Of a DNA stretch of 64,000 nt, positions 3,185-58,751 are shown piece by piece. A program made the position numbers and the translations under genes. The notes below the pieces were generated by a model. The model searched no databases and had not been told where the DNA came from. It saw only the letters and a list, made by a program, of their open reading frames with translations. How positions within the stretch are numbered: position 1 is the first letter of the stretch; each line of letters opens with the position of its first letter. Source of the DNA: a virus; IMG/VR virus record IMGVR_UViG_3300010885_015027, positions 1 through 64,000 of that record; one strand, written 5' to 3'.

Positions 3185-3239
3185 ATATCTCCTTTGTTTT
3201 CAACAGTATTCTGCAAGTGACTGATTCAGAAGGAGATAT
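3185..3239. repeat. 55-bp imperfect palindrome, copy 1
   Basis: ATATCTCCTTTGTTTTCAAC..GCAAGTGACTGATTCAGAAGGAGATAT. Confidence 0.9.
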
Positions 3240-3242
3240 AGA

Positions 3243-3620
3243 TTAATTAATAATTTCGTTCCCAGAGACCCGAGCGTACCCATAGACCTCTGCGTTCCCA
3301 GAGACCCGAGCGTACCCAGAGACCTCGGCGTCCCCAGCGACCACTGCGTCCCCAGCGACCACTGCGTTCCCATAGATCCAGGCGTTCCCAGAGACCATTG
3401 CGTTCCCAGAGACCATTGCGTTCCCATAGACCTCTGCGTTCCCAGAGACCTCTGCGTTCTCAGAGACCACAGCGTTCTCAGAGACCACTGCTTCAGGACC
3501 AACGTAGGCAGTCTCAGCGACACTAGCAGTATTCTCGACCCAGCCTCCTCCATTAGAATGAGGGTGCCACGTCTCAAGAGTAGCGTCAGGAAAAGCAGAT
3601 TTTAAATCTTCAAATGTCAT
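3243..3620 (-). CDS. hexapeptide-repeat (left-handed beta-helix-like) protein, paralog 1
   Basis: MTFEDLK.FPDATLETWH.H.NGGGWV cap followed by V[SY]G[ND]Ax repeats. Confidence 0.85.
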   Translation of the reverse strand: MTFEDLKSAFPDATLETWHPHSNGGGWVENTASVAETAYVGPEAVVSENAVVSENAEVSGNAEVYGNAMVSGNAMVSGNAWIYGNAVVAGDAVVAGDAEVSGYARVSGNAEVYGYARVSGNEIIN

Positions 3621-3628
3621 ATAGAACC

Positions 3629-3657
3629 ATTATACCTTATTGGAACATCGATGTCAA
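3629..3657 (-). promoter_or_regulatory. sigma70-type early promoter
   Basis: TTGACA-17-TATAAT, ATG 8 nt downstream. Confidence 0.85.
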
Positions 3658-3674
3658 GTGAGAATATTATTCTC

Positions 3675-5894
3675 TCAAACAATTAAGTCAATAAATTTTG
3701 ATATCATAGTATTAACTCGTTTCTGTGTGGAGGCCGATTTACAGAAAGTCTCTGCGACAGAAAGAGTTTTTTCTTTTGAATTGTGCGGTTTCGGTTTTTT
3801 GAACATCTCAGTAGAACATATAAATGTAGTATCGAATGATTCTTTATCCACTCGTTCAATCACAATATATTTAGAGTTAAAAGCTTCATGTGTTTTCTTT
3901 CGAAGATAACCGGAATATCGCATATTCTGTATTTCTTCACTAGTGAGGCCCATTTCGGTCAAATATTTTTTCCTTTGATCTTCTGTGATTTCGTACAATA
4001 AATCAGATGTAATTAGAAAATTGATTACTGTGACATCTTTCATTCTAGTCTTAATAATTTTCAAGAAATCCTCAGAAGTGCATCCACTATTATATTCTGA
4101 AAAATAATGATTCAGTTTCGTTTTGGGATCGTGGATAACAATTTTAGATCTATATGAAGGATAGGGATAGCCGTAAGTTTTGGCGTTTTTATATATAACA
4201 GATTTAGCTGGACCTTGGCCGTCGGTGAAATAAACAACATTCACTATTTTCGCAGCACAATCTTCTCTAAATTTTGCCACTAGTGAATCTAGACAGAGAT
4301 GTGTTTCTGATAGGGGAGTTCCTCCTAAACCATACATGTGATTACCTATATGATTCATGAAAATATCAACCATACATTTAAAATTGCTTTCCGACATTCT
4401 AGAACTTAGTAATTCTAATAATCGAAATTTGTCAGTAGTCTCAAAGGTATATTCATTTTTTCCGATATGTGTGTCGAACACGACTTCACAATCTTGTGCA
4501 TCGTACTCGTATTGACGAACTGAATCAAAGAACCCATATAAAACATAAGGAATACCGATCTGTTTACAAAAAAGAATTAATTCTAATGCCTTTGTTTTTG
4601 CTGCACGAAGATATGCAGACATTGAACTAGAAAAATCCATAATGAAAATCAACCCATGGTTTTTTCCATTCGGGCGAACTTCAAAAGTTTTGAATATTTG
4701 ATCGTTATATTTGTAGGAATACAACTTGTTCATATCTAAACTGCCAGTTCTGAACATCATCGTTTTATTATGTTGATCAGCTTTCTTTCGCATTTGGAAT
4801 AGCTGTTTGTGTAAAGAGATGTTATTCTTATGTTCAGTATAGAACGAGGATAACGAGTTGCCAGTCTTACCAAATATTTCGTCTAATTCGGAATCTTCTT
4901 TTATTTCTTTATTTTCTTGACTAGTAGAAAAGATTCTATCAAAATCTTTTTTAATAGATTCAAACGGATAGATAATAGTCCCCAATATGGGTGTAGGCAT
5001 ATCAACATACAAAATTTTACCGACAGATGTATTGACACGATCTGATAGAGAGTTATCTAGATCTCGGAGAGTTTGCGATTTCGATGGAGTGTTTGTAGAT
5101 TCTGTTACAGTTGATGATTCTTTTTGAGTATCGTCATCTACTTTTCTAGAAGTTCTAGCAGAACCGCTCTCAGTGTCTCCAGAATCGTCAGTCGATTCTT
5201 CGGTGGATTCTTCGGTGGATTCTTCGGTGGATTCGTCAGTCGATTCTTCGGTCGATTCTTCGGTCGATTCTTCGTCAGTCGAATCTTCGGTGGATTCTTC
5301 TCCCGATTCCTCTTTCTGAGAAGAGTTATTGCGTTTTCGGTTTTCGTGAAGTTCCGAATCGAAGATTTCAATTGCAATATCAATCACTTCTTTAAAATTA
5401 ACTACAGATTCAATCTTTCGAATATAAGTCTCTTCTCGTTCACTCAGAGACAAAGAAAAGATTCCATTAAATTTGAAATAGACATTCAACCTGTCAATTA
5501 ACGACAGATTCTTGACATCATCTATTACCATTATCTTATTTTCGAGAATCTGTTTATAACCGTGAAAGAAGATTTTCTTCATTCCAGGATAACGTTGTTT
5601 CACAAGAGATTCGATTCTAGCATCTTCGATAATATTAAGATAATCACGAAAAACATCATTCGGTTCTCTCAATTTAAGAGCAGCAATCCATTCGTCAGAA
5701 TTGGTATAGAGAGCGTGGCCGATCTCATGACCAATTAATAATTCAACAATAATATCAGAAAGATTCTCCCAAGTTGGGATAACGAGTACTCGCTTTTGGG
5801 TATCGAAATAAGCAGTCTTCTCAGGCTGCTGGATAACTGTAATGTCTTCGGCAGACATCAATTTCGCGAGATTTTCTTGTACAGTTGTTATCAT
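3675..5894 (-). CDS. CobT-like protein with HExxH metallopeptidase-like domain and vWA domain
   Basis: GHEIGHALYT, NIIEDARIE, MIDAS DFSSSM, GGTPL, FTDG. Confidence 0.85.
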   Translation of the reverse strand: MITTVQENLAKLMSAEDITVIQQPEKTAYFDTQKRVLVIPTWENLSDIIVELLIGHEIGHALYTNSDEWIAALKLREPNDVFRDYLNIIEDARIESLVKQRYPGMKKIFFHGYKQILENKIMVIDDVKNLSLIDRLNVYFKFNGIFSLSLSEREETYIRKIESVVNFKEVIDIAIEIFDSELHENRKRNNSSQKEESGEESTEDSTDEESTEESTEESTDESTEESTEESTEESTDDSGDTESGSARTSRKVDDDTQKESSTVTESTNTPSKSQTLRDLDNSLSDRVNTSVGKILYVDMPTPILGTIIYPFESIKKDFDRIFSTSQENKEIKEDSELDEIFGKTGNSLSSFYTEHKNNISLHKQLFQMRKKADQHNKTMMFRTGSLDMNKLYSYKYNDQIFKTFEVRPNGKNHGLIFIMDFSSSMSAYLRAAKTKALELILFCKQIGIPYVLYGFFDSVRQYEYDAQDCEVVFDTHIGKNEYTFETTDKFRLLELLSSRMSESNFKCMVDIFMNHIGNHMYGLGGTPLSETHLCLDSLVAKFREDCAAKIVNVVYFTDGQGPAKSVIYKNAKTYGYPYPSYRSKIVIHDPKTKLNHYFSEYNSGCTSEDFLKIIKTRMKDVTVINFLITSDLLYEITEDQRKKYLTEMGLTSEEIQNMRYSGYLRKKTHEAFNSKYIVIERVDKESFDTTFICSTEMFKKPKPHNSKEKTLSVAETFCKSASTQKRVNTMISKFIDLIV
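5186..5302 (-). repeat. 12-bp coding tandem repeat (STEE/STDE linker)
   Basis: Repeated GATTCTTCGGT[GC] units. Confidence 0.85.
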
Positions 5895-5950
5895 ATAGAA
5901 CTATTATACCTTTTCCATCCAGGAATAGCAAGGATTTTTTTTGAAAAATA

Positions 5951-6436
5951 TCAACCGATAATTTCGTCCCCAAAGACCCGAGCTTTCCCAGAGATCGTTG
6001 CGTTCCCAGAGACCACTGCGTCCCCATAGACCACTGCGTCCCCATAGACCTCAGCGTCCCCATAGACCACTGCGTCCCCATAGACCTGAGCGTACCCAGA
6101 GACCTGAGCGTTCCCAGAGACCATTACGTTCCCAGAGACCTGAGCGTCCCCATAGACCTCAGCGTTCCCAGAGACCACTGCGTTCCCAGAGACCCGAGAT
6201 CTCCCATAGACCACTGCGTTCCCAGAGACCACTGCGTTCCCAGAGACCCGAGAGTTCCCAGAGACCATTGCGTTCTCAAAGACCCGAGCGTACCCGAAGA
6301 CCAATGCGTCAGGACCAACGTAGGCAGTCTCAGCGACGGTAGCAGTATTCTCGACCCAGCCTTCTCCGTTAGGATGGACGTGCCAAGTGTCTAGGGTAGC
6401 GTCAGGAAAATCGGATTTTAAATCTTCGAACTTCAT
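5951..6436 (-). CDS. hexapeptide-repeat protein, paralog 2
   Basis: Start MKFEDLK matches the paralogs; 18-bp repeat units. Confidence 0.85.
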   Translation of the reverse strand: MKFEDLKSDFPDATLDTWHVHPNGEGWVENTATVAETAYVGPDALVFGYARVFENAMVSGNSRVSGNAVVSGNAVVYGRSRVSGNAVVSGNAEVYGDAQVSGNVMVSGNAQVSGYAQVYGDAVVYGDAEVYGDAVVYGDAVVSGNATISGKARVFGDEIIG

Positions 6437-6487
6437 ATAGAACCAGTATACCTTATTGGAACACACAAAGCAAGGAATTTTCAAACT

Positions 6488-6744
6488 ATATCTCCTTTGT
6501 TTTCAACAGTATTCTGCAAGTGACTGATTCAGAAGGAGATATTCTTTCTTGAAATCCTTGAAGATTCCATCTCTATACCCACCTGTGTTATTGCCCTCAT
6601 GGATCGTCCCAGGGACGCACACAAGCGATCTCTGGATTCAGATGATCCACTAGTATACCTGTGTTCTTCTAGTGATCTTGCGAAAGAATATCTCCCTTTG
6701 TTTTCAGTAGTTTACCGCAAGTCATTGAAAACAAAGGGAGATAT
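6488..6744. repeat. palindrome - conserved spacer (family 1) - palindrome, between divergent promoters
   Basis: Palindromes at 6488-6542 and 6688-6744; the spacer recurs inverted at 57537-57686. Confidence 0.85.
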
Positions 6745-6796
6745 AGTTTCGAGGCTTCCTTGCTATTCCCGGCTGGAACAGCTATAATGGTTCTAT

Positions 6797-6961
6797 ATGA
6801 TGATTACCTTTATTAAGAGCAAAACCAAAGATCAGAAACGTATCGTTCTTTTTCAGATCGGGAATTACCAATACGAAATCTGGAGCCAGACCTCTGGAAC
6901 TGTTCGTAAACTTATGGATACTTCTCATGAAGACGCTCTGGTCATTTTCAATGCACTATAA
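6797..6961 (+). CDS. 54-aa leaderless early protein
   Basis: MMITFIKSKTKDQKRIVLFQ.. after TTGCTA-17-TATAAT (6760-6788). Confidence 0.7.
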   Translation: MMITFIKSKTKDQKRIVLFQIGNYQYEIWSQTSGTVRKLMDTSHEDALVIFNAL

Positions 6962-7017
6962 AGTGATTTTCGGTTCGTCCTTGACACAATAGAAATTTTA
7001 AGGTATATGGGTTCTAT

Positions 7018-7452
7018 ATGACATTCAATGAGTTAAAAACGGCTTTTCCTGGCGCCACCACTGAGCGATGGAGAAAACACTCCTTAGGAGGAGGCTGGGT
7101 CGAGATTACTGCCCGTGTCGCTGAGTCTGCCTATGTTGGTCGTGATGCTATTGTATCTGGGAACGCTCGGGTCACTGCGAACGCAACGATCTCTGGGAAC
7201 GCTCGGGTCTCTGGGAAAGCTTGGGTCGCTGGTAACAGTGCGGTCTCTGGTAACGCAGAGGTCTATGGCAACGCCCAGGTCTTTGGGACCGCAGTGGTCT
7301 CCGGAGACGCTGAGGTCTATGGGGACGCTCAGGTATTTGAGACCGCTCAGGTCGGTGAGGACGCTCGGGTCTTCGGTTATTCCCAGGTTTCTGGGAGATC
7401 TCTGGTCTTTGGAGACACGGTAGTCTGGAACGAAATTATTATTAATCGTTGA
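7018..7452 (+). CDS. hexapeptide-repeat protein, paralog 3
   Basis: Same cap and repeats as the other paralogs. Confidence 0.85.
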   Translation: MTFNELKTAFPGATTERWRKHSLGGGWVEITARVAESAYVGRDAIVSGNARVTANATISGNARVSGKAWVAGNSAVSGNAEVYGNAQVFGTAVVSGDAEVYGDAQVFETAQVGEDARVFGYSQVSGRSLVFGDTVVWNEIIINR

Positions 7453-11046: not shown

Positions 11047-11637
11047 ATGTCTGAATTTTATGTCTATGCATATTTGCGAGAAGATGGCTCCCCATATTAT
11101 ATCGGGAAAGGACGAGGTAACAGAGCCTGGAGGAAGTCGGGAAGACAAGTTCCTCCACCTACAGATTCTTCTAGAATAGTTATTGTCAAAGAGACACTTA
11201 CAGAAACAGAAGCCTTCTCTGAAGAAATGCGACTCATCCAATTGCACGGTCGAAAAGATAATGGAACAGGAATTCTGAGAAATCTGACAGATGGTGGAGA
11301 AGGAACTTCTGGATGCAAACGTTCTCAAGAAACCAGAGACAAACAATCTGTAGCTATGTCTGGTGAAAATAATCCTATGTTCGGAAAGTTTGGAGAAAAT
11401 CATCCTAATTATGGAAGGACTGGTATAAGTCATCCTATGTTTGGACAGCACCACACTCCAGAAGCCAGAGACAAAATGTCTGCAGCTGCGTCTGGTGAAA
11501 ATAATCCTATGTTTGGAAGGACAGGTGAAAACAGTCCCAGGTTTAGACAGAAACTATCTCCAGATTCAATAGCCAAAATGATTGCAACCATGAAGAGAAA
11601 TAAAGAAGCTAAGGATCTCACACAGCATCATTTATAA
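11047..11637 (+). mobile_element. GIY-YIG-like/NUMOD3 homing endonuclease
   Basis: [37 protein letters not shown] repeats. Confidence 0.85.
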
Positions 11638-11645: not shown

Positions 11646-11735
11646 ATGAATGTGACGCTGAAAAATTTTAATGAAACCCATGTAATTGTTGAAGCAGAAC
11701 AAGGAATTATCCAGGAGCTGTACGAACTCCTCTGA
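11646..11735 (+). pseudogene. orphan 5' fragment of uvsW
   Basis: MNVTLKNFNETHVIVEAEQGIIQELYELL* versus UvsW MNVTLKNFNETHVIIDTEPGVLQELYELLS. Confidence 0.9.
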
Positions 11736-11855
11736 GAACAAAATATAACTTATTTTGAAAGTCAAGATCTAGTTTTGTATAAATAATAGTCGAGAGGAGA
11801 ATAGTCTTAGAAACTTTCTCCTCTCTAAACACACAAACTACGGAGAGTAGCTTAT

Positions 11856-12455
11856 ATGTCTAAAACTATTTATACAAAAGATCCGAACAGATTCTATGTC
11901 TATGCTTTTCTAAGAGAAGATGGTTCCCCTTATTATATCGGAAAAGGTACGGGTGCCAGAGCCTGGATCAAGAGACGAAGGTCTTCTCCACCTGCTGACG
12001 TGTCTAGAATATCTATTCTCTTTGAAAATCTGACAGAAACAGAAGCCTTCGATGAAGAAATGAGACTAATAAATTTCTATGGTAGAAAAGACCTAGGAAC
12101 AGGAATCCTGAGAAATCTGACAGATGGCGGAGAAGGAGCTTCTGGCTGCATACGATCTCAAGACGCTCGAGACAAAATGTCTGAAGCACAGTCTGGAGAA
12201 AATCATCCTATGTTTGGAAAGCGCCATACTCAAGACGCCAGAGACAAAATGTCTGCAGCACTGTCTGGAGAAAATCATCCTATGTTTGGAAAGCGCCATA
12301 CTCAAGACGCCAGAGACAAAATGTCTGCATCACGGTCTGGAGAAAAGAATCCTATGTATGGAAAGCGTCGATCTCCAGAAACACTAGCCAAAATGCGTGA
12401 AACCATCAAGAGAAATAAAGAAGCTAGGATTCTCAACGAATTAGAAGTTTTATAA
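11856..12455 (+). mobile_element. GIY-YIG-like/NUMOD3 homing endonuclease (three 72-bp repeats)
   Basis: Paralog of 11047; QDARDKMS..SGE.[HN]PM[FY]GKR x3. Confidence 0.85.
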
Positions 12456-12463
12456 ATATTTGA

Positions 12464-13936
12464 ATGAATGTGACGCTGAAAAATTTTAATGAAACCCATG
12501 TAATCATAGACACCGAGCCAGGCGTTCTGCAAGAGTTGTACGAACTCTTGTCTTTCGAAGTTAAAGGCGCAAAATTCATGCCTATCTACAAGAAGAGGCT
12601 ATGGGATGGATACGCAAGATTATTGAATATCCGAAACAAAACAGTTGGTAAGGGTCTTGCGTATCACATTAAGTCTTATTGCGAAGACAATGGATATATT
12701 TTCAACCAGGAATTCAGCGACGATGGATTCTCTGAAGAGATAGCAGATGCATTTATTAAATCGAATAAGATTCATTCTGCCGATGGTTTCGAGATCGAAT
12801 TGCGTGATTATCAAATAGATTCTATAAAACATGGAATCCGTAACAACAGATCTATTACTGTCTCGGTTACAGGTTCTGGTAAATCTGCCATAATCGCTTC
12901 TCTAATTCGTTTCTATCACGAAAATACAGAAGGAAAGTGTCTTCTTATTTGTCCAACGACTAGTCTTGTTGAACAATTATATTCTGATATAGGTGAATAT
13001 TTCCCAGACTGGGATCACTCCACTAAAATTACTAGAATCTATTCTGGTATGGAAAGAGAAGACAAAAGAATTATCATAAGCACTTGGCAAAGTTTATATG
13101 ATAAACCGACTTCTTATTTTGATGACATCGAAGTTCTCCTTGGCGATGAGTGCCATTTATATTCTGCCAAAGAAGTTTCAAAGTTATTTGAAAAATGCGT
13201 TAATGCTATTTACAGACACGGTTTCACAGGAACATTATCTGGTGAGAAGATTCATCAATTACAGTTAGAAGGAATATTTGGTAAATCAAGAATTCTTACA
13301 ACAACTTCAGAGTTAATCAAAAAATCTCAATTATCGGATTTTAAGATTAATGCTCTTGTCCTTTCTTATTCTGATGCTTCCAGGAAAGCTTCCAAAGATA
13401 TCACATATGAAGAAGAAGTGAAATTTCTTATTGGTAATGACAAGAGGAATCGGTTCATTGCCAAATTAGCTGCAAGTACGAAAGGAAATACTCTCGTGTT
13501 ATTCTCTAGAGTAGAAACTCATGGAGAACTTATCTATAACCTTATTCAGAAGTATACTGATAGACCAGTTTATTTCGTTTATGGTGGAACTGATGTGGAT
13601 ATTCGAGAAGATGTAAGAAAACAAATTAATGATATTAACGATGGAATTATCGTAGCTTCTTCACAGATATTCTCTACAGGAATTAATATTCCTTCACTTC
13701 AGAATATCATATTCACACATCCTTCGAAATCTAAAATAAGAGTTCTACAATCAATCGGAAGAGTGCTTAGATTATCTGCGAACAAAGTCGGACCAGCAAT
13801 TCTGTTCGATATCGTTGACGATCTACAATTTAGGAATAAGAAGAATTTCTCCATGAAACACTTTCTGGAGAGGGCCAAGATTTATGTGCAAGAGAATTTC
13901 AATTACAAAATAATTAATGTAGATTTGGAGAAATAA
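12464..13936 (+). CDS. uvsW: UvsW SF2 helicase
   Basis: LRDYQ, TGSGKS, DECH, GFTGT, QSIGRVLR. Confidence 0.95.
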   Translation: MNVTLKNFNETHVIIDTEPGVLQELYELLSFEVKGAKFMPIYKKRLWDGYARLLNIRNKTVGKGLAYHIKSYCEDNGYIFNQEFSDDGFSEEIADAFIKSNKIHSADGFEIELRDYQIDSIKHGIRNNRSITVSVTGSGKSAIIASLIRFYHENTEGKCLLICPTTSLVEQLYSDIGEYFPDWDHSTKITRIYSGMEREDKRIIISTWQSLYDKPTSYFDDIEVLLGDECHLYSAKEVSKLFEKCVNAIYRHGFTGTLSGEKIHQLQLEGIFGKSRILTTTSELIKKSQLSDFKINALVLSYSDASRKASKDITYEEEVKFLIGNDKRNRFIAKLAASTKGNTLVLFSRVETHGELIYNLIQKYTDRPVYFVYGGTDVDIREDVRKQINDINDGIIVASSQIFSTGINIPSLQNIIFTHPSKSKIRVLQSIGRVLRLSANKVGPAILFDIVDDLQFRNKKNFSMKHFLERAKIYVQENFNYKIINVDLEK

Positions 13937-14279: not shown

Positions 14280-14567
14280 ATGATGTTAATAAATATTTCG
14301 ATGACTGACGAGAACGAGCTATTACCAAGCATAGAAGATATTCTCATTAAACCTGAAGATCTTTTGCGTGATATCAAAGCTCTAGTTTTGAATAATAGAA
14401 TGAATTATTTGGAAGCTGTTGTTTATTATTGTCAGAAGAATAATTATGATATTGAAGCTGTTGCAAAGACGATTCCACAATCACTCAGAACTCTAGTAGA
14501 GGACTCTGCAAAGAAGCTGAAATTATTCAAGAAAATCCATAATAATAGCAAATCGTTACCAATCTAG
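14280..14567 (+). CDS. 33: late transcription coactivator gp33
   Basis: MNYLEAVVYYC..IEAVAK..; 33-59-32 synteny. Confidence 0.85.
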   Translation: MMLINISMTDENELLPSIEDILIKPEDLLRDIKALVLNNRMNYLEAVVYYCQKNNYDIEAVAKTIPQSLRTLVEDSAKKLKLFKKIHNNSKSLPI

Positions 14568-16710: not shown

Positions 16711-16803
16711 AGGCCTCTGAAGAGTAACAACGAATAAAATATAGGTCTTTTATTTTCAGTAAAAATTGATTTGAGTGTTCCAAATAAGGTATAATGATTC
16801 TAT

Positions 16804-17247
16804 ATGACATTTGAAGATTTAAAAACTGCTTTTCCTGACGCTACTCTTGATACATGGCACGTTCATCCTAGAGGAGGAGGTTGGGTCGAGAATACTGCTA
16901 CCGTCGCTGAGACTGCCGACGTTGGTCCTGACGCATTGGTCTATGGGAACGCAGTGGTCTCTGGGAACGCTGAGGTCTCTGGGAGATCTCGGGTCTTTGG
17001 GTACGCTTGGATCGATGGTGACGCTACGATCACCGAGGACGCTCAGATCTATGGTGACGCTACGATCGCCGGGTTCGCTCAGGTCTACGGCGACGCTTGG
17101 GTCTACGGCGGCGCTCGGGTATTTGGGAGATCTCAGATCTCTGGGAGATCTCGGGTCTTCGGATCCGCTCGGATATCTGGGAGATCTCTGGTCTTTGGAG
17201 ACACGGTAGTCTCTGGGGACCAAATTATTGGTGAAGTGGCCAATTAA
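16804..17247 (+). CDS. hexapeptide-repeat protein, paralog 4
   Basis: Same cap; ATG 8 nt after TATAAT (16790-16795). Confidence 0.85.
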   Translation: MTFEDLKTAFPDATLDTWHVHPRGGGWVENTATVAETADVGPDALVYGNAVVSGNAEVSGRSRVFGYAWIDGDATITEDAQIYGDATIAGFAQVYGDAWVYGGARVFGRSQISGRSRVFGSARISGRSLVFGDTVVSGDQIIGEVAN

Positions 17248-17261
17248 ATTTGATTTGAACT

Positions 17262-17527: not shown

Positions 17528-17577
17528 TCTTTCGAGGCCTCCTTGCTATATGGGTTCCAATAAGGTATAATGGTTCT

Positions 17578-38182: not shown

Positions 38183-38184
38183 GA

Positions 38185-38215
38185 AAAATGGAGGGACCCA
38201 AATCCCTCCATTTTC
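38185..38215 (+). terminator. terminator after tmRNA
   Basis: AAAATGGAGGGA..TCCCTCCATTTT. Confidence 0.8.
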
Positions 38216-38297
38216 ACATTTGAAATACAAGACTGATTATAGTAGCAATTTAAAGCTAAATATATGTGTTCTTATGTAATTTAAAGAGACGTGAACC

Positions 38298-47491: not shown

Positions 47492-48671
47492 TGTATTTCT
47501 CCAAAATTTCGTTGCCAGTTACCCTAGTATTCCCCGAGACCTCAGTATTCCCCGAGACCAATGCGTTGCCAGAGACCCGAGCGTTCCCAGAGACTTTAGA
47601 GTTCCCAGAGACTTTAGAGTTCCCAGAGACTCGAGCGTACCCAAAGACCTGAGCGTACCCAAAGACCTGAGCGTCATCAAGGACTATAGTGTATCCAAAG
47701 ACCTTAGCCTTCCCAAAGACCTGAGATCTCCCAGCGACCCCAGCGGATCCAGAGACCTCTGCGTTCCCAGAGACCTCTGCGAGCCCATAGATCTCTGCGA
47801 ACCCAAATACCTGAGAACTCCCAGAGACCAATGAATTCCCAGAGACCCGAGGGTTCCCATAGACCTCAGCTTTCCCAGATACAATAGCGTAAGGACCAAC
47901 GTAAGCAGTATCAGAAACCTTAGCAGTATTCTCGACCCAGCCTCCTCCGTTGGGATGACGGTGCCAAGTCTCAAGAGTAGCGTCAGGAAACTTAGTTTTC
48001 AACTCTTCTAACTTCGCAAGATTTATCTTGTTAAATTTAAGCGTTTTAATTTTGTCTATGTACGGTTTATAACTTCTAAAAATATCAGCGAATTCCAGCT
48101 CAGTTTGTTTTTCGAATTCTAATTCTGATATTTGTTTATCATTAATATCATAAAAAATAATTGTTTTTTCGTTAGATTGTATTTCTATTGCCCATTTTTC
48201 TTTCTTTTTCTTGTCATTCAAACAAAAAATTAAATTAGAATTATACTCATAAAAATATTGATTAAAGTAATCATATTTTCTTTTAGCAACACACCAATCT
48301 GACATACAGTCTAAGTTTCCATAATAAACACTTGCTTTTTTATCTAGTGGAATTATAATATTCCAACCAGCAGATCTTTGTTCGGGTGTTGTTATATTAA
48401 ATGAAGTACCTTGATCTTTCTTCTCAACTTTCTTGTTCGCAACAACAGCAACTTCTTTTTCTTTTGTATCTACGAATTCTTCAAATTCAGAGAACGTCTT
48501 CTTAGCCCAAAAATCAATATTCTTCTCTTCACCAGCTAGTTTTTGTTTGTTAGAAAGTTCCTTGAACTTCTTAATATAATCATCAACTTGGCCTTTATCA
48601 ATACCAGAAGCAACGAATTTCAAGGCTGTTGTTTTATAATCTTCATCGATAAAGGATTTAAATGATAGCAT
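47478..48671 (-). CDS. putative head-internal protein, paralog B, fused to the hexapeptide-repeat module
   Basis: N-half paralogous to 46295; C-half FPDATLETWH..VSGNA repeats. Confidence 0.8.
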   Translation of the reverse strand: MLSFKSFIDEDYKTTALKFVASGIDKGQVDDYIKKFKELSNKQKLAGEEKNIDFWAKKTFSEFEEFVDTKEKEVAVVANKKVEKKDQGTSFNITTPEQRSAGWNIIIPLDKKASVYYGNLDCMSDWCVAKRKYDYFNQYFYEYNSNLIFCLNDKKKKEKWAIEIQSNEKTIIFYDINDKQISELEFEKQTELEFADIFRSYKPYIDKIKTLKFNKINLAKLEELKTKFPDATLETWHRHPNGGGWVENTAKVSDTAYVGPYAIVSGKAEVYGNPRVSGNSLVSGSSQVFGFAEIYGLAEVSGNAEVSGSAGVAGRSQVFGKAKVFGYTIVLDDAQVFGYAQVFGYARVSGNSKVSGNSKVSGNARVSGNALVSGNTEVSGNTRVTGNEILEKYNAII

Positions 48672-50741: not shown

Positions 50742-53700
50742 TTATACAGACAAAAGTCTAATATTCGTTATCTTACAACCACTGGCAAGTTTCTTGCCTT
50801 TATTGGAGAACACGAAACAGATTTTCTTACCGTCTTTCTTACTATAAGTTGTCGTCTCAGAAATAATTTTAATCGATTCTTCTAGTTTAGATCCAGGAGT
50901 TTTATTGAAAATCGATTCGTTAATTCCATATTCCTCAATATAAGGAGCAATTCTTTTCATAATATCGGCAGAAACATTAGGAACATCTTTTCCAAAAATT
51001 TTCAATAATTCTTGAGTTTCTGGAACATAATTTGCTAATTTTTTTGGAGAAAAACCATCTATATCTTTTACATTATCTAGACGATCCAAAGCTTTTATAT
51101 TCTTAACAGAAATTGGAGCAGCCTTCAAATTAGTAAAATATGTATCGTGATCAACTTTTACTTTATCAGGAGAGTCAGTATGTTCACTAAATGCCTTCGA
51201 TAATATCTTGACAGTTGTTGCAGTTTCTTTTCCAAATTCTTTGCTTAATGATTTAAATGTAATAGAAGCTGGTCCGTCTTCCATAACGTCATGCAATATT
51301 GCTGCTAAAAGAGTTGGTTCATCTGTGAAACCATAATTCATAGCAGTATCAAATACTTCCATTGGATGTATGATGTATTTCGATCCAGTTGATTTTCTGA
51401 ATTGCCCCTCGTGAGCCATATCAGCTAATTTATATGCAGCTTCAATTTTTGGATATAACTTAGGGAATTTCTGTTTTGCTCTTTCTAAAATCGTTTTGAT
51501 GGTAGAATCAACATCAGTTTTTTCACGAATACTGTCAGAAATAATTTTAATCGATTCTTGAATCGGATCTTCTGAATAATTGTAATAATCGAATATTGCT
51601 TCTGCATTATGAGTAGAAACTGAGACCTTATCTTGAATCCAAGCAGGTAGTTCAGTCTTATTCTGGATAATATCCAAAGTCTTCATAGATAAATCTGCAA
51701 TCTTTTTTAATTGTCCAGTGATCATCTCGATTTCGTAATCATCTTCTTCGTTCAAAAGCTTTCTCCTTGTAGCACTAAGTTTTAATATGAAAGCACCTGG
51801 ATCTGTTACTTCTATGCTTTCGTTGTTTCCAGATTTTCCACGCCATTCAAAAGAATATTCTACCGCAGAAAGATGTTTGTTGACTATGCTTCCAATCGCT
51901 TTTTGTAAATTAATATCATTTACGTTCCACTTGATAGTATTAAATCTTAATTCGTTGAATTGTTTATCTAGTAACCAACGGACCCAACCTTTCTTAGTAG
52001 CATCAGTTTCTGTCGGTTTTCTACCCAATGATGTATTAGGATTCATTTCTGCTATTCTTCTGAGTATAGAAGTATGAGTATTATCTAGTTCGTTTGGTCT
52101 TATGGATTCCCCTTGTGGTGTAATCCAACCCCCGTCTGTGTATCCGAACATATGCGCTTCTGCCAGATATTTTCTGGCTTTCTTTGCAAGATCAGCATCT
52201 GTGCTATACCATGTCTTTCCTTTTGTTAAGAAAGAATTTACTCTTGCAAAAGCCCAAGCTGATTGCGGTGCACCTGGTCTGTGGCCAGTTACCCATGCAG
52301 CCATTCCACGATTATAGACTTGTTTTAAGATAGAATAAGGAACACCGGAGGCTTTTGACTTCTTCTGCAAAGCAGTTATAGATCTTTTCTTTTCTTCATC
52401 TAACATAAGATTTCTGAACAGTTTTTTAATTGCAGAAGGCTCTTTAAGAGAATTTCTGAGACGTCTAAGAGAGTTGTCTATTTTTACTGTTTCTCTTCTA
52501 TTTTGTTTGTTATCTTTTGTTTTACTTCTCAAATCCCAAGTTATTTCTTCCGGAAGGCGTATATTCTCGCCAAAAACATCTTTTTTAGTTCCACGAACTA
52601 TACTGTTAATAATATTTTCCACGCCCATCACAATACGATCTTCACTATTCGGAAGATACCCATATATATCTAATTTTTTGGGGGTTTTAGATTCTATAAA
52701 AAATTTTAACCATCCAGCATTTAATGCTTGATATTCGTACAATTTTCCGGGGAGAATATTCGCATGCGAATATTCATCTTCTTTACTATCTTTTTGTTTT
52801 TTTGTCGGGAAAACTAAGTTTCCTTCTAGATCTATCCAACCCCAATATTCATAATATTTTCCCATCTCAAAAGATTCTTTTGTTACAAATTTTGCCCTGT
52901 ATTTCTTGTTATATTTAGATGGTCTAGTCGCTTTCGAATCACCAGGAACTTTATCTGCCTTTTTATATTCATCTTTTGTGAAAGGATAAGTTCCTAAGCC
53001 CTTCCAGAAAGAAGATCTTTTCTTAGAAGTTGATTTAGATAATTTTGCGAAATATTTCTTAGGTTCGGCATCTTCGTCCATATAGTTCTGAAGATAGCTC
53101 TTCACTAAATCAAAATACTTAATCTTCTTACCACCAACAGTTATCAATAAATCAGCAGGAATTCCTGCTGCATCTGAGAAGCTATCTTTATCGTCAGCTT
53201 TAACAGCAGATCGCAAATCTGATGCAGAAGATAATCTTTCTGTAGGTCTCAGAATAATATTTGAGAAGATATATCTCTTTCCATCTTTTAATTCTTTATC
53301 ATTATAATCTTTCAATAGTTGCAATACATATTGTTCATCAGTATAACAGATAAGTGTTATATCATCTTTCTTGTATTTTTCGTAAACATATGTTGCTAGA
53401 GTTAACCAAGTTTGTTCGAAAACAAAATGATCCTTGATGTTTGGATATAGAGTATTAATGACGATTTCTTTAACATCAGAAGGGAGCGGATCTTTTTTAC
53501 CTATCGTACTTTTATTTGTTCCAACATACCAAGCATCTAGATCGGAATCAGCAGCCATCTGTTTCCAAGCTGCAATATGACCCTTATGTGGAGGATTGAA
53601 TCTACCAAACATTACACCAACAGCGAAAGATCCTTCTAGATCTTCTGTTATGGATTCTGTTTTTGCAAAATTACCTTGCAAACCTGATATAATGAATTTT

Positions 53701-54707
53701 CCAGTTATTTTTAGGATCTCGCCATTCTCTCTTTTAATCATCAATCCTTCTTGATCGGATCCCTTTCCTAATTTGGATCCAACGGAATTCATGATGTATG
53801 TCCCAAGAGTAATTGTTGCGTAATACAGAATGTAATCCCTAATTTGATCTGGTGTTAAACCTGTCTTATCACCAGCATCTATCTCTTGATAGACTTTCTT
53901 AGTGAAGATAACTGCCCTATCATTTTTCTTTGGGATTTGATCTATGTCTAAAATCCAATTTTTAAGAGATTTGGATACACCATTCAGAGTCAAATTTGTA
54001 TCTAATGTTGGAGTAAAATTAAGATTTGCAGTCTTCTTAACTTCTGGATTACCTAACACAACAAAGTCGTCTTCGTTGTTCTTTTTCTTTAATAGAACTG
54101 TTAAGGCTTTTGCATATGCATTAATAACATCTACATTGTAAGGATAATCTGATATTTCTCTTTTCTTATTACCAGTTTTTTTAACAATTTCGTCTGAATA
54201 TTTAATGATTCTTAGACCATGTATGGCAATAAAATTCTTGATGTTATATGTTATCTGGTTGGATTTGCCATTTTCAACAAATTCTACATTTAAGATAAGA
54301 TTGGGATTCTTCGTCAAACCTAATTTATCTAAACTCTTCATAGTGGAATCTATTGTCGGATTCAATAAATTGAGAAGAATTGACGCACTCCTTTGTAGTT
54401 CAGGCCTCAGTCGACTTGCGTCTAAGTTATCGACAGTGATTCCTGTAAAATCTTCATCTGCTTGGGTTCCACGATCCAAAGCAAATTCATATTTTCCAGC
54501 GGCATTCTTTACTAATCTCACGGATAGATTTATTCCATCCAACTTCACCCAAGCAGATCCAGGTTTACCAGCAGAACCCTTTTCAATATATTTTTTGACT
54601 TCGTCGAATAAATTTAGAAATTCTCGGCCATTATTGGCGACATCAAATGGGTGGAGAACATGGCCTCCTGCACCACCTTCTGTTAAAAAAGATTTAAAAG
54701 ATATCAT
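50742..54707 (-). CDS. 1321-aa multidomain protein: N-terminal domain, HIGH nucleotidyltransferase, two GWI domains, conserved phage domains, RelA/SpoT-type HD hydrolase
   Basis: MISFKSFLTE; FGRFNPPHKGH; VYNRGMAAW..WAFARVNSF; AHEGQFRK..YIIHP..LHDVMED..K.LDRLDN. Confidence 0.85.
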   Translation of the reverse strand: MISFKSFLTEGGAGGHVLHPFDVANNGREFLNLFDEVKKYIEKGSAGKPGSAWVKLDGINLSVRLVKNAAGKYEFALDRGTQADEDFTGITVDNLDASRLRPELQRSASILLNLLNPTIDSTMKSLDKLGLTKNPNLILNVEFVENGKSNQITYNIKNFIAIHGLRIIKYSDEIVKKTGNKKREISDYPYNVDVINAYAKALTVLLKKKNNEDDFVVLGNPEVKKTANLNFTPTLDTNLTLNGVSKSLKNWILDIDQIPKKNDRAVIFTKKVYQEIDAGDKTGLTPDQIRDYILYYATITLGTYIMNSVGSKLGKGSDQEGLMIKRENGEILKITGKFIISGLQGNFAKTESITEDLEGSFAVGVMFGRFNPPHKGHIAAWKQMAADSDLDAWYVGTNKSTIGKKDPLPSDVKEIVINTLYPNIKDHFVFEQTWLTLATYVYEKYKKDDITLICYTDEQYVLQLLKDYNDKELKDGKRYIFSNIILRPTERLSSASDLRSAVKADDKDSFSDAAGIPADLLITVGGKKIKYFDLVKSYLQNYMDEDAEPKKYFAKLSKSTSKKRSSFWKGLGTYPFTKDEYKKADKVPGDSKATRPSKYNKKYRAKFVTKESFEMGKYYEYWGWIDLEGNLVFPTKKQKDSKEDEYSHANILPGKLYEYQALNAGWLKFFIESKTPKKLDIYGYLPNSEDRIVMGVENIINSIVRGTKKDVFGENIRLPEEITWDLRSKTKDNKQNRRETVKIDNSLRRLRNSLKEPSAIKKLFRNLMLDEEKKRSITALQKKSKASGVPYSILKQVYNRGMAAWVTGHRPGAPQSAWAFARVNSFLTKGKTWYSTDADLAKKARKYLAEAHMFGYTDGGWITPQGESIRPNELDNTHTSILRRIAEMNPNTSLGRKPTETDATKKGWVRWLLDKQFNELRFNTIKWNVNDINLQKAIGSIVNKHLSAVEYSFEWRGKSGNNESIEVTDPGAFILKLSATRRKLLNEEDDYEIEMITGQLKKIADLSMKTLDIIQNKTELPAWIQDKVSVSTHNAEAIFDYYNYSEDPIQESIKIISDSIREKTDVDSTIKTILERAKQKFPKLYPKIEAAYKLADMAHEGQFRKSTGSKYIIHPMEVFDTAMNYGFTDEPTLLAAILHDVMEDGPASITFKSLSKEFGKETATTVKILSKAFSEHTDSPDKVKVDHDTYFTNLKAAPISVKNIKALDRLDNVKDIDGFSPKKLANYVPETQELLKIFGKDVPNVSADIMKRIAPYIEEYGINESIFNKTPGSKLEESIKIISETTTYSKKDGKKICFVFSNKGKKLASGCKITNIRLLSV

Positions 54708-55315: not shown

Positions 55316-56083
55316 TTAAATTATTGTGAGGATTTGGGAGGAATTAAGATCAGGTGTTGATTTACAGTCTACTACATACCATGCATTCGTGTCAAGATGG
55401 ATCTTTAGATAATGATTCAGAGCGGTATCGATGTTAATGTTACGAGCGTGCATTTCAGTACCCATCCACAGCGGGACAGTATGTTGTGTATGTCCGACAA
55501 CCTGAAAAAGTCCTTCGATCAATTCTAGATTGGTCCAATCTATCCAAAGAAATCCACCGTGTTTCTGACGGCCACCACGATCCTGACCAGCATGAAGCAG
55601 CGGATGGTTCGAGTCGATGTCGACGTCTAGTGAATCAAAAAAATCTACTAGCGAATCGTGCTTGGTCGCATCAGTAAATACGGTAAAATGACTAGGATGA
55701 ATACCAGCATGAGAAAAGAGAACAGACTTTCCAGCAATCTTTTGTAATTCATAGAGTTTAATTTTTTTTCGAAATTCCTTTGAAAGATTCTTTTTGATAT
55801 ATTCGTGATTGTTACTAGAGTATCCAGAACAAAGATTATCTTTGTTTGTTGACAGATAATGGATATCATGATTGCCCATCAAGAAGGTATAGCGAGGATT
55901 ATCTGCATTCTCATTCAAGAAGGCGACGGTATATTTAAATTGATCTTGATGATAAAATGAATCAAAATAATCACCAAGAAAAATCACTTCTTCGGCAGTT
56001 TTGATATCTTCCCGGTCTAGAAGAATATCTAACTTAAAAATCTGTTGGTGGATATCTGGTATAACAATCTTATGAGTGGACAT
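55316..56083 (-). CDS. calcineurin-like metallophosphoesterase
   Basis: DIH, GDYFD, GNHD, SHAG, VGHT, IDT. Confidence 0.88.
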   Translation of the reverse strand: MSTHKIVIPDIHQQIFKLDILLDREDIKTAEEVIFLGDYFDSFYHQDQFKYTVAFLNENADNPRYTFLMGNHDIHYLSTNKDNLCSGYSSNNHEYIKKNLSKEFRKKIKLYELQKIAGKSVLFSHAGIHPSHFTVFTDATKHDSLVDFFDSLDVDIDSNHPLLHAGQDRGGRQKHGGFLWIDWTNLELIEGLFQVVGHTQHTVPLWMGTEMHARNINIDTALNHYLKIHLDTNAWYVVDCKSTPDLNSSQILTII

Positions 56084-56089
56084 AATAAT

Positions 56090-56296
56090 TTATTCATGAA
56101 ATTCATCTATTTCCAATTGTTCTATTTCTAATAGTGTGAACAATTTAAAACTTTTACATTCTCTGCATCTTCCAACATATTGTTCTGCGAATTCTCTAGT
56201 AGAGAATGCCCCCAGATTGTAAGTGATCATTGTGTCATTATAATCATCCCAATCGATTTCTTGTCTGGTTTCTTTTACTAAGAAGATAGTAGTCAT
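56090..56296 (-). CDS. hypothetical protein
   Basis: ORF in operon. Confidence 0.55.
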   Translation of the reverse strand: MTTIFLVKETRQEIDWDDYNDTMITYNLGAFSTREFAEQYVGRCRECKSFKLFTLLEIEQLEIDEFHE

Positions 56297-56315
56297 AATT
56301 TTAAATTAATTTATA

Positions 56316-56450
56316 TAGAGGGAAACTACAAAGTGAACCATCCAATATTTCAGAATGGCAGCAGCTCATCTTGACTTGCTCTCGGTTCTGCTTTTCACCC
56401 TATTCTCTCTTTGTTTGGTTTCTGCCAGGCTGTTAATCCGTTTCCCTCTA
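56316..56450 (-). ncRNA. candidate structured RNA
   Basis: 11-bp closing stem TAGAGGGAAAC/GTTTCCCTCTA; inner TGGCAG/CTGCCA; intergenic. Confidence 0.45.
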
Positions 56451-56469
56451 CTATTTAATTATATACTAT

Positions 56470-56883
56470 TTACTTCCTGGTGTCAAGATCTATTTTAGGA
56501 GAAGTCTTCATAAAAATATCATGACAGATATCACAATTAGTTTTGATCCATGATCGACCGTCTTTCAACGTCCGAAGCTTGGCCCCATCAGCCCCACAAA
56601 CTTCGCAGACCGTCTCAGAAAGTTTTTCGTATCTGAAAACGATTTCATAGAGTTCATCATAACCAGTATATTCTTCATCTAACCACCTTAGATAGACTCG
56701 GAGTGTACCGAACTTTTCTTTGACTTGTGCAATCCCACCATCCCAACCAGCCTCAGATAATTCTTGAAATAATTTACGAAGGATTCCATCCCAACCTCTA
56801 TCACATTGGGCATATCTAAGATTTAAAAAATCCTCCACTGAACATGTATTTTTACCGCCACGTCGTTCGATTGACAACATCAT
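56470..56883 (-). CDS. conserved phage protein (QVKEKFG.LR, CxxC..CxxC)
   Basis: GW..I, QVKEKFGTLRVY, CEVCG, CDIC. Confidence 0.75.
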   Translation of the reverse strand: MMLSIERRGGKNTCSVEDFLNLRYAQCDRGWDGILRKLFQELSEAGWDGGIAQVKEKFGTLRVYLRWLDEEYTGYDELYEIVFRYEKLSETVCEVCGADGAKLRTLKDGRSWIKTNCDICHDIFMKTSPKIDLDTRK

Positions 56884-57155
56884 CGAAGACCTCCACCAGA
56901 TTCACGTTCATTTTCGCAAACTTTATAACGAGTCAACAGCGAGTATTTAATCAAAAAACAGATCCTTGAATTATCGGTATCTTTACCGAATTCGCCTAGA
57001 TAAGTGAATCCTTCATAATTACCAGTGTCATGAAGAATATTGCCCGCAATGCTGATATAGGCATTTCGTTCACAAACCGAGTGATCCGGGGAATTCTTCA
57101 AAAACCAATTCGTCTTTTCCAGAAGATCCGCCACTTCAAAAGTCTTTCGTGTCAT
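56880..57155 (-). CDS. hypothetical protein
   Basis: ILHDTGNYEGF motif. Confidence 0.6.
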   Translation of the reverse strand: MTRKTFEVADLLEKTNWFLKNSPDHSVCERNAYISIAGNILHDTGNYEGFTYLGEFGKDTDNSRICFLIKYSLLTRYKVCENERESGGGLR

Positions 57156-57190
57156 ATAATTATTATATATCTTCCTATTCTAAATGTCAA

Positions 57191-57406
57191 CTACGAAGTG
57201 AAAGAAAATCTAACATTCATTGTCCGTCGATTCATCGCGATCAAATATATTTCATTATACATAGCAACGAAAGAAATATTCAGAGGCTGGTCGACGCAAG
57301 GATGCAATGCTCGATAATGTTCAAGAACTTGAATACCATTCATCTTTCCTTTTGGATTCAGGTCAAAGAATTCTTGGAGGTTGCTGATTCGTTGTTTAAT
57401 ACTCAT
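57191..57406 (-). CDS. hypothetical protein
   Basis: Follows a TTGACA-17-TACAAT promoter. Confidence 0.55.
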   Translation of the reverse strand: MSIKQRISNLQEFFDLNPKGKMNGIQVLEHYRALHPCVDQPLNISFVAMYNEIYLIAMNRRTMNVRFSFTS

Positions 57407-57481
57407 ATAGACTATCCCTTTAAAACTGGTACATACCTATTGTAGCGTGAGAAGTCAAGGATGTCAAGTCTTTTTAAAAGA

Positions 57482-57741
57482 ATATCTCCTTTGTTTTCAA
57501 CGACTTGGTGCAAGTGATTGATTCAGAACGAGATATTCTTTTTGAGATCGCTACAGAGATCTCGAGAGACCAGGTATACCTATGGACCACCTGAATCCAG
57601 AGATCGCTTGTGTGCGTCCCTGGGACGATCCATGCAGGCAATAACACAGGTGGGTATAGATGGAACCTCCATGGATTTCGAAAAGAATATCTCCTTTGTT
57701 TTCAACGGCTCCTTGCAAGTGATTGAAAACAAAGGAAATTT
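57482..57741. repeat. palindrome - spacer (family 1, inverted) - palindrome, between divergent promoters
   Basis: Palindromes at 57482-57536 and 57687-57741. Confidence 0.85.
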
Positions 57742-57791
57742 AAATTTAGAATTTCCTTGCTAAACTCCCCGCTCTATTATATAATGGATGT

Positions 57792-58025
57792 ATGGTTATC
57801 AAAGGAACAGTTCCTGAATGCGACATTACTGGGAAGAAGTATAATCCTCCCGTTTTTGGTGGTCACTGCGTTGTCGCTGGTGCGACTGGTCGTCACTGTG
57901 TTGTGATGCTTATTGGTCCGGAAGTGATTGAACGGGCGAACTTTAAAGTTCTCGACTTCGAAGAGACGATGGATTATCGGGAAGAGATTGCTGACAAGTT
58001 TGGTTGGGGAAACGTCGATTTCTAG
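57792..58025 (+). CDS. leaderless cassette ORF
   Basis: TTGCTA-17-TATAAT, 6 nt, ATG. Confidence 0.7.
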   Translation: MVIKGTVPECDITGKKYNPPVFGGHCVVAGATGRHCVVMLIGPEVIERANFKVLDFEETMDYREEIADKFGWGNVDF

Positions 58026-58032
58026 GAAAAGA

Positions 58033-58087
58033 ATATCTCCTTTGTTTTCAGTAGTTTAGTGCAAGTGATTGATTCAGAAGGAGATAT
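58033..58087. repeat. 55-bp palindrome
   Basis: Same family as 3185-3239. Confidence 0.9.
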
Positions 58088-58139
58088 TCTTTCGAGGCCT
58101 CCTTGCTATTCCTGGATGGATAAGGTATAATGGTTCTAT

Positions 58140-58643
58140 ATGACATTCGAAGATTTGAAATCTACTTTTCCTGACGCTACTCTTGAGACGTGGCATGTTC
58201 ATACTAACGGAGGAGGCTGGGTTCAGAATACTGCTACGGTCACTGATAGTGCCTACGTTGGTCCTGACGCAGTGGTCTCTGGGAACGCTCAGGTCTCTGG
58301 GAACGCTCAGGTCTCTGGAGACGCTAAGGTTTTTGGGGACGCAGAGGTCTCTGAGAACGCATTGGTCTATGGGAAAGCAATGGTCTTTGAGAACGCATTG
58401 GTCTTTGAGAACGCTATGGTCTTTGAGAACGCTATGGTCTTTGAGAACGCAATGGTCTCTGGGAATGCTCGGGTCTTTGGGGACGCTGATGTCTGTGGGA
58501 ACGCAGTGGTTTATGGGAACGCAGTGGTTTATGGGAGATCTCGGGTCGCTGGGAACGCATTGGTCTCAGGATTCGCTCAGGTCTCTGGGAACGCAGTGGT
58601 CTCTGGGAGATCTCGTGTCTGTGGGAACGAAATTATTAATTGA
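58140..58643 (+). CDS. hexapeptide-repeat protein, paralog 5
   Basis: Same cap and repeats; leaderless. Confidence 0.85.
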   Translation: MTFEDLKSTFPDATLETWHVHTNGGGWVQNTATVTDSAYVGPDAVVSGNAQVSGNAQVSGDAKVFGDAEVSENALVYGKAMVFENALVFENAMVFENAMVFENAMVSGNARVFGDADVCGNAVVYGNAVVYGRSRVAGNALVSGFAQVSGNAVVSGRSRVCGNEIIN

Positions 58644-58646
58644 TCT

Positions 58647-58701
58647 ATATCTCCTTTGTTTTCAACGGCTCCTTGCAAGTGACTGATTCAGAAGGAGATA
58701 T
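58647..58701. repeat. 55-bp palindrome
   Basis: Same family as 3185-3239. Confidence 0.9.
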
Positions 58702-58751
58702 TCTTTCGAGGCCTCCTTGCTATTGATGTTCCACTAAGGTATAATGGTTCT

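Follow-up and report, generated by a model that had tools for sequence, protein, structure and literature searches.

Palindrome-promoter units flank polymorphic single-gene cassettes in a contig from an uncultured T4-like lake phage

The DNA analysed here, which we call the window, is the first 64 kb (64,000 nt) of a single 76,732-bp viral contig, IMG/VR record IMGVR_UViG_3300010885_015027, for which CheckV gives a completeness of ~42%. Scattered over the window are copies of an imperfect palindrome of ~55 bp (PAL), many of them coupled to a predicted strong promoter and an open reading frame (ORF) whose start codon lies directly behind the promoter. Here, we report that single units of this kind come and go between near-identical phages, and we consider what the palindrome, the promoter and the recombination genes of the phage may contribute to this. 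Along its full length, the gp43-type DNA polymerase shares 50% identity with gp43 of Synechococcus and Prochlorococcus myoviruses (cyanomyoviruses), and PHROG families were matched by a gp46/SbcC-like nuclease subunit, a DnaB-like helicase, a UvsW-like helicase, DNA and RNA ligases and a CobS-like ATPase. A UvsX-like RecA-family recombinase, a gp33-like late coactivator and a dCMP deaminase are also encoded. Judged by its polymerase, nuclease subunit, helicases, ligases, recombinase and coactivator, the contig is a fragment of a T4-like phage, uncultured and of lake or freshwater origin. Near-identical sequence turned up in 19 studies, in metagenomes and metatranscriptomes from lakes and fresh water, and the cultured-phage database held no DNA match to 56000-60000 or to one cassette. 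Related contigs were gathered by pattern and protein searches, and all of them are short-read metagenome assemblies; single-protein locus searches with the ORF at 18777-19745 and with the phosphatase (55316-56083) returned no relatives.

An earlier note, made from the sequence of the window, had counted eleven copies of the palindrome, and all eleven were recovered both by a core-motif search and by an nhmmer profile built from them; neither search gave a copy in the rest of the contig (64-76.7 kb). The copies can be aligned one way, which gives PAL, an asymmetric element (55 unique copies), a canonical orientation. Seven copies are in the plus orientation, at 3185 (full extent 3178-3244), 6488 (6482-6548), 6688 (6681-6751), 57482 (57476-57541), 57687, 58033 and 58647, and four in the minus orientation, at 17262 (17257-17323), 17473 (17467-17534), 36128 (36121-36189) and 36324 (36318-36385). 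A search with the 19-nt left arm (arm A, at most 3 mismatches) had 11 matches, where 100 dinucleotide shuffles predict 0.07. It reaches 10 of the 11 elements: 57687 is hit twice, its arms being symmetric, and 6688, the most symmetric copy, is missed because of a 1-nt insertion, which is compensated in both arms. The half copy that had been noticed near 2892 is real as well; it consists of arm A only (2890-2911), overlaps the stop codon of ORF75 (2907-3134, minus strand) and has a homologue in the close relative L001. A collapsed remnant, a 15-nt mini-palindrome at 3660-3675, follows the peptidase gene and is longer in L001.

Arm A, GAAAGAATATCTCCTTTGTTTTCA, is near-invariant and is followed by a variable 10-nt centre and an invariant GCAAGT. 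The right arm takes alternative forms (..ATTCAGAAGGAGATAT, ..AAAACAAAGGAGATAT, ..AAACTAAAG..) and the outer end two forms (ATATTCTTTC or ATATAGTTT); the promoter-side end is nearly always ATATTCTTTCGAGGCCTCC, after which the -35 box follows. PAL starts 0-10 nt past the stop codon of the upstream gene and has A-rich and T-rich flanks on both sides. At 3178-3244 a leftward promoter lies on the arm-A side, and the stop codon of LbH125, a gene of the YdcK-type beta-solenoid (LbH) family, abuts the other end. As RNA, both strands are predicted to form a hairpin (-14 to -24 kcal/mol, z -2 to -6), with an outer stem of 11-13 bp, an internal loop of ~4x4 that most copies keep, and a short apical stem. 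In IMG/VR, 16 contigs contain the strict PAL pattern, and among 185,579 prokaryote genomes only one phage contig does, so that we regard it as specific to this phage clade. That one contig, L073 (JBIKJV010000303.1, 12,969 bp), carries the peptidase gene, a PAL and the phosphatase gene of the clade inside a Lake Mendota Phycisphaerales metagenome-assembled genome, where mis-binning is more likely than a host signal.

The promoter string TTGCTA-17-TATAAT, which the same note had placed behind many copies, is indeed present on the plus strand downstream of 6688, 17473, 36324, 57687, 58033 and 58647, and on the minus strand it adjoins 3185, 6488 and 36128. The pattern TTGCWW-N17-TAWAAT-NNTTNTAT has 11 matches against 0.05 expected. 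A wider scan for TTGNNN-N16-18-TANNNT-like promoters found 20 with an ATG-led ORF 3-8 nt past the -10 box, 18 of them at exactly 6 or 8 nt, and the boxes at these 20 sites are TTGCTA or TTGACA, N17 and TATAAT. An ATG at +6 or +8 follows 23 of the 136 TATAAT sites, as against 1-9 in 20 Markov simulations. Promoters of this type serve the cassette ORFs together with the genes for the DNA polymerase, the DnaB-like helicase, the peptidase, the gp33-like coactivator and the dCMP deaminase, and the relative G001, ~75% identical, has the same -10/ATG layout before its polymerase and peptidase genes. Among the core early genes, those at 28533-31049 (DNA polymerase), 32532-33935 (DnaB-like helicase), 14280-14567 (gp33-like late coactivator) and 59470-59889 (dCMP deaminase) start 6-8 nt past a consensus -10. 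Other genes of the window carry ordinary AGGAG ribosome-binding sites. Bacterial RNA polymerase usually starts ~7 nt past the -10 box; with the ATG 6 or 8 nt past it, the mRNAs should therefore begin at the AUG or 1-2 nt before it. Such transcripts would be leaderless and would need no ribosome-binding site, and from the promoter layout the whole early regulon appears to be leaderless.

The repeated PAL-promoter units are ~110 bp long and 63-100% identical. Two promoters 22 kb apart, at 36394-36430 and 58717-58753, are identical over all 37 nt, and the centre, right-arm and end variants of PAL occur in many combinations among the 55 unique copies. Together these two observations indicate that the copies recombine with one another.

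The single-ORF units in tandem that had been likened to a cassette array are real. One array, PAL57687-ORF77-PAL58033-LbH167-PAL58647-ORF86, is made of three plus-strand units, each a PAL, a promoter and an ORF: 57681-58025 with ORF77 (57792-58025), 58027-58643 with LbH167 (58140-58643) and 58643-59012 with ORF86 (58752-59012). The other runs from the half PAL through ORF75 and PAL3185 to LbH125; here ORF75 has a leaderless early promoter at 3133-3169 (minus strand), and LbH125 (3243-3620) together with its own promoter (3621-3657) fills 3243-3661 (minus strand). Further minus-strand units are the peptidase promoter (5895-5931) with LbH161 (5951-6436) at 5895-6446, LbH161 having its leaderless promoter at 6437-6473, and ORF108 with a leaderless promoter (36076-36112) at 35751-36112. 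On the plus strand lie promoter and ORF54 (6797-6961) at 6760-7001, promoter and LbH147 (16804-17247) at 16766-17247, promoter and the leaderless ORF185 (17578-18135) at 17543-18135, and promoter and ORF250 at 36394-37183. The cargo thus consists of LbH paralogues (PF18836; phrog_7964 and phrog_5070, families of unassigned function), which are the main cargo, and of ORFs without a family match. As a multigene family with a hexapeptide repeat of 18-bp period, LbH was found at 3243-3620, 5951-6436, 7018-7452, 16804-17247 and 58140-58643 and in parts of 46295-48671.

Four pairs of PALs enclose GC-richer spacers of 128-143 nt, which are of two types and are conserved in relatives: type 1 at 6549-6680 (minus) and 57542-57680 (plus), type 2 at 17324-17466 and 36190-36317 (both minus). 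They alternate with promoter-ORF units and act as units without a promoter, so that the simplest account is that they are relics of lost cargo, and this they probably are. Rfam gave no match in palindromes or spacers, either over the whole window at gathering thresholds or over 57400-58200 at E<=10. Other roles for the spacers were also considered. As structured RNA, type 1 folds slightly better than its shuffles (z -2.5 to -3) and type 2 no better. As small ORFs, they show synonymous-looking substitutions in one frame; in L065 and L035, however, that of type 2 is interrupted by a 1-nt indel. Their GATC clustering (4-5 per 150 nt) was set aside, since it is equalled in other windows and the genome-wide count of 437 sites agrees with a first-order Markov model.

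Gene content between the repeats, whose invariance across relatives had been named beforehand as the outcome that would speak against shuffling, is not invariant. Eight contigs with flanks 86-99% identical to the window (L001, L065, L068, L071, L067, L072, L035 and L061) vary in their units at five PAL loci. Single promoter-ORF-palindrome units have been gained, lost, replaced or moved to another place, and the breakpoints that were mapped fall within the repeated units. L001 (flanks 94-99%) lacks 5903-6446, i.e., LbH161 and a promoter; the crossover falls inside a ~21-nt ATG/-10 repeat, and its peptidase gene is therefore driven directly by the promoter that serves LbH161 in the window. L001 also lacks 6800-7001 (ORF54 and a promoter), and a type-2 spacer replaces window positions 3245-3650 (LbH125 and its promoter), with the left boundary exactly at the PAL end, 3244/3245. 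In L068 (98.5%) ORF54 is absent (6800-7001) and the LbH gene is kept, which makes a third haplotype. L065 (99%) is without LbH147 and PAL17262 and has two tandem spacer-PAL units instead. Its joint (16757 to 17347) is also found in assemblies of three public runs (X2, X3 and X15) from different studies, one of them a metatranscriptome; in all, two cassette variants recur as joints in assemblies of independent public runs.

Gains are seen as well. L071 (91-97%) and L067 (88-96%), which come from different samples, share an extra PAL-flanked unit with a 118-aa ORF (ORF118) between LbH167 and ORF86, and L072 (92-99%) has an additional promoter-ORF56-PAL unit at the 36.2-kb locus, where the type-2 spacer of 36190-36317 lies. 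The ORF56 product of L072 is 87.5% identical to that of ORF54 in the window, and the same cargo therefore occurs at different PAL loci. Within the cargo itself, the number of 18-bp repeats varies between near-identical phages, the LbH gene encoding 147 aa in the window and 255 aa in L035 (96%). Crossovers resolved to single bases are located either in the promoter's -10/ATG segment or at the outer PAL end. Many PAL-to-PAL joints in contigs of public runs have short sides and may be cross-matches between repeats, and these were not used as evidence.

In more distant relatives larger blocks are rearranged, and the breakpoints in relatives of 75-83% identity lie at PAL sites. Five contigs of a clade with ~76-83% nucleotide identity (L015/L041, L039, L040, L042 and L044) share a junction at which the block ending at window position 16460 is joined to the ligase block via two PALs and two small ORFs, in an orientation opposite to that of the window. 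In G001 (89 kb) and L015, the phosphatase gene (window 55316-56083) adjoins the end of the peptidase gene with a PAL in between. In the window, PALs occupy all these junctions, at 2890/3185, 17262/17473 and 57482. Five larger related records yielded no ligase, and the contigs end too soon for the full history of rearrangement to be reconstructed. G001 keeps PALs at sites homologous to 17.4 kb and 36.2 kb of the window, which indicates that these are long-lived regulatory sites, not recent insertions.

The earlier note had seen no integrase, and this holds across the whole 76.7-kb contig, where tyrosine integrase (PF00589) gave no match and the control genomes all matched. Serine recombinase (resolvase) and Y1 transposase (PF01797) were likewise without a match in the 76.7 kb, both searches finding their targets in control genomes; a search for the endonuclease VII family was uninformative, the control genomes staying silent. 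The phage's own general recombination genes, namely the UvsX-like RecA (31100-32134, plus strand, outside the cassettes), the gp46/SbcC-like nuclease subunit (40580-42298, minus strand) and the UvsW-like helicase, would suffice for the exchanges, and nothing points to a dedicated capture machine. Composite elements of a comparable kind, the promoter-early stem-loop (PeSL) cassettes, have been described in the T4-type phages RB49/phi1, PST/T4 and nt-1/KVP40 (Arbiol et al. 2010, PMC2839356; Comeau et al. 2014, PMC4122927). T4 recombination needs <50 bp of homology, and mini-circle crossovers at PeSL were mapped between -10 and ATG (PMC2839356).

We consider, with a probability of about three in four, that the units are regulatory cassettes of the PeSL type which are shuffled by homologous exchange between the repeated PAL-promoter units. 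Homologous recombination is suggested as the mechanism because there is a T4-type recombination set and, in the 76.7 kb, no dedicated recombinase, and because the crossovers occupy the same position as in PeSL. The proposal of PeSL-like, recombination-driven gene shuffling thus stands as far as the cassette polymorphism and the breakpoints in the repeats go, with one qualification. Since crossovers map to -10/ATG or to the outer PAL end, the promoter is at least as much a recombination substrate as the palindrome. A full unit has three parts: a palindrome of ~55 bp abutting the upstream stop codon, then a short linker rich in GC, and an early promoter of near-consensus sigma70 type. Near-identical repeats of ~110 bp thus lie at many intergenic sites and in both orientations in a phage with T4-type homologous recombination. 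Unequal exchange between copies could delete, insert, replace or relocate a single gene between two of them, and copies in opposite orientation could invert larger blocks. A unit equipped with a promoter of its own, and probably with a stop signal, would allow a newly placed gene to be expressed early with its neighbours undisturbed.

Several observations weigh against this picture. The contig covers just ~42% of the genome, the sequences used for comparison all come from short-read assemblies, which are prone to mis-joining at ~110-bp repeats, and some indels between relatives are not at cassettes (a NUMOD gene duplication; a 3.3-kb insertion in G001). For the palindrome, a simple intrinsic-terminator scan does not flag it, and pairing across the 55 unique copies (73.5%) is no better than in column shuffles (74.2%), so that covariation lends no support to a hairpin function. 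Moreover, what is conserved in arm A and the GCAAGT centre is the sequence itself, for which a plain terminator has no need. A few compensated changes do exist (CTCG..CGAG; ATATTCCC..GGGAATAT; an inserted C matched by an inserted G), with no statistical covariation. Transcription may terminate at the palindrome. An internal promoter within it (TTGCAA ... TATAGT) does not fit, its spacing being 14 or 20 nt.

RNase III processing hairpins lie between the early genes of T7; they are long and intergenic and have an internal loop. It is possible, though we doubt it, that PAL is mainly such a site for RNA processing or stabilisation (e.g., an RNase III-type hairpin) or an early-gene operator rather than a terminator, the shuffling being a passive by-product. 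The stem and internal-loop architecture described above would suit this, as would the failure of PAL in the canonical terminator scan and the conservation of sequence instead of pairing. However, placement directly behind stop codons, with A-rich and T-rich stretches flanking the element on either side, also fits a bidirectional terminator. The hairpins of the two phages are alike in being long, intergenic, interrupted by an internal loop and placed after early genes; there is no relation in sequence, and here a promoter is joined to the hairpin, which recurs as a substrate for recombination. We think it unlikely that the 55-bp element serves a phage or host factor (a structure-specific recombinase, a nuclease or an RNA-processing enzyme) as its recognition site and, with the leaderless promoters, forms a purpose-built cassette system whose exchanges are catalysed and not accidental. 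Quite unlikely is the related case of a dedicated integron-like system, in which the palindrome would be an attC-analogue site for a recombinase or nuclease encoded elsewhere in the genome that excises and inserts cassettes. It would explain why arm A and the central GCAAGT hardly vary among 55 copies although the genes of the phages that carry them are only ~75% identical, why the asymmetry of PAL is kept in both orientations and why sequence is conserved without covariation; some boundaries, such as 3244/3245, do lie exactly at the palindrome end, and with 42% of the genome in hand the enzyme could be encoded outside the contig. Yet the 76.7 kb hold no tyrosine integrase, serine recombinase or Y1 transposase, the base-mapped crossover is in the -10/ATG segment and not in the palindrome, the junctions are not fixed in position, the cassettes differ from those of integrons in having a promoter each, and palindromes sit at the same intergenic sites in distant relatives.

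Two further explanations were considered. The apparent shuffling might be an artefact of short-read assembly through ~110-bp repeats: every relative comes from a metagenome assembly, Logan contigs are interrupted at the repeats, and short sides of 20-33 nt are found at many joints. But the same variants recur in independent samples and assemblies (L071 and L067; L001 and L068), the L065 variant recurs in three runs from three studies, the ligase junction is shared by five contigs, one deletion junction uses a repeat of only ~21 nt, and the insertions bring in sequence that is absent from the 76.7-kb contig. We regard the artefact as very unlikely. Least credible to us is that the palindromes are selfish miniature mobile elements, similar to miniature inverted-repeat transposable elements (MITE) or repetitive extragenic palindromes (REP), with an incidental association to promoters. 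They are short, palindromic, multi-copy, present in both orientations and often paired ~200 bp apart, as such elements are; on the other hand, the flanks of 55 copies show no target-site duplications, the 76.7 kb contain no Y1 transposase (PF01797) of the REP-associated tyrosine transposase (RAYT) type, copies stand at homologous sites in relatives ~25% diverged, and the strict pattern is absent from the 185,579 prokaryote genomes save for the one mis-binned phage contig.

Among known systems, the PeSL cassettes come closest. Like the PeSL elements, those described here reside in a T4-type phage, combine a stem-loop, here a predicted one, with a strong sigma70-like early promoter, are repeated in intergenic spaces of variable regions and flank small ORFs of unassigned function; close relatives differ by insertion, deletion or replacement of an ORF between two copies, with a crossover between -10 and ATG, and a dedicated recombinase is known for neither. 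Of seven defining features of PeSL, five could be assessed, and four of these are present (a T4-type genome, a sigma70-like early promoter, small ORFan cargo, and indels with crossovers in the elements). The Shine-Dalgarno feature is not, the ATG 6-8 nt past -10 leaving no room for a leader. The elements differ further in that the palindrome is asymmetric, ~55 bp long and conserved in sequence instead of a short GC stem, that it lies upstream of -35 and not within or over the promoter, that its sequence is kept across phages ~25% diverged, and that pairs of palindromes enclose promoter-less spacer units. What is new relative to PeSL is the leaderless layout, the long, conserved, asymmetric palindrome and the documented cassette polymorphism in nature. 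With integrons (attC/IntI) the units share the single ORF bounded by imperfect palindromes, the tandem arrays and a content that varies in close relatives. In contrast, no integrase was found here (76.7 kb, contig 42% complete), the units reside in a T4-like phage of lytic type, each is served by a separate promoter instead of one promoter common to all, and the breakpoints are not fixed in the palindrome. Short, dispersed, intergenic and often paired palindromes are also typical of REP, of bacterial interspersed mosaic elements (BIME) and of MITE, but here there is no transposase and there are no target duplications, positions are conserved in relatives, and the occurrence is confined to one phage clade.

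Modular shuffling mediated by PeSL has so far been documented in a few cultured pairs of T4-type phages. The same logic is seen here in an abundant, uncultured clade of lake phages, with polymorphism visible in natural populations across many studies. It shows the turnover of accessory early genes in the wild, among them a multi-copy beta-solenoid family, which likely have functions in host takeover or anti-defence. A promoter fused to the start codon makes a cassette without any 5' untranslated region, and an early regulon that includes the DNA polymerase would be translated from leaderless mRNAs; in the literature searched we found no report of a leaderless early regulon for T4-like phages. 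The strongly conserved, asymmetric palindrome is, in addition, a defined candidate site for a regulator, a processing enzyme or a recombination factor. Right after ORF86, at 59013-59060, there is a different, short hairpin (AGTCAAA..TTTGACT) which overlaps the -35 box of the next promoter, a layout closer to that of RB49-type PeSL.

Some further features of the window are recorded here. Tandem paralogues with NUMOD repeats, which are homing-endonuclease-like, lie at 11047-11637 and 11856-12455 (plus strand). L001 and the runs X2 and X3 have a single copy (joint 11732 to 12551, side 99 nt), and the duplication is therefore polymorphic in nature. The peptidase gene (3675-5894, minus strand) has a 12-bp tandem repeat at 5170-5313 which encodes an acidic stretch rich in Ser, Asp and Glu and differs by 9 nt in copy number from L001. 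Rfam, over the whole window at gathering thresholds, matched only a transfer-messenger RNA (tmRNA) and a tRNA. The genes for tRNA-Thr(TGT) (798-882) and tRNA-Pro(TGG) (1147-1223), both on the minus strand, adjoin the ligase block, and public runs have very high depth over the tRNA bin, probably from cross-matching cellular tRNAs. A 1321-aa protein encoded at 50742-54707 (minus strand) combines cytidylyltransferase-like and HD phosphohydrolase domains according to its PHROG matches. The tmRNA gene, at 37864-38229 (plus strand), is of the two-piece, circularly permuted kind (Rfam beta_tmRNA 102.5 bits, tmRNA_permuted 94.1 bits), and its tag according to ARAGORN is VNTNVMAMSAAA; similar two-piece tmRNA genes occur in marine T4-like pelagi- and methylophages (PMC9004378).

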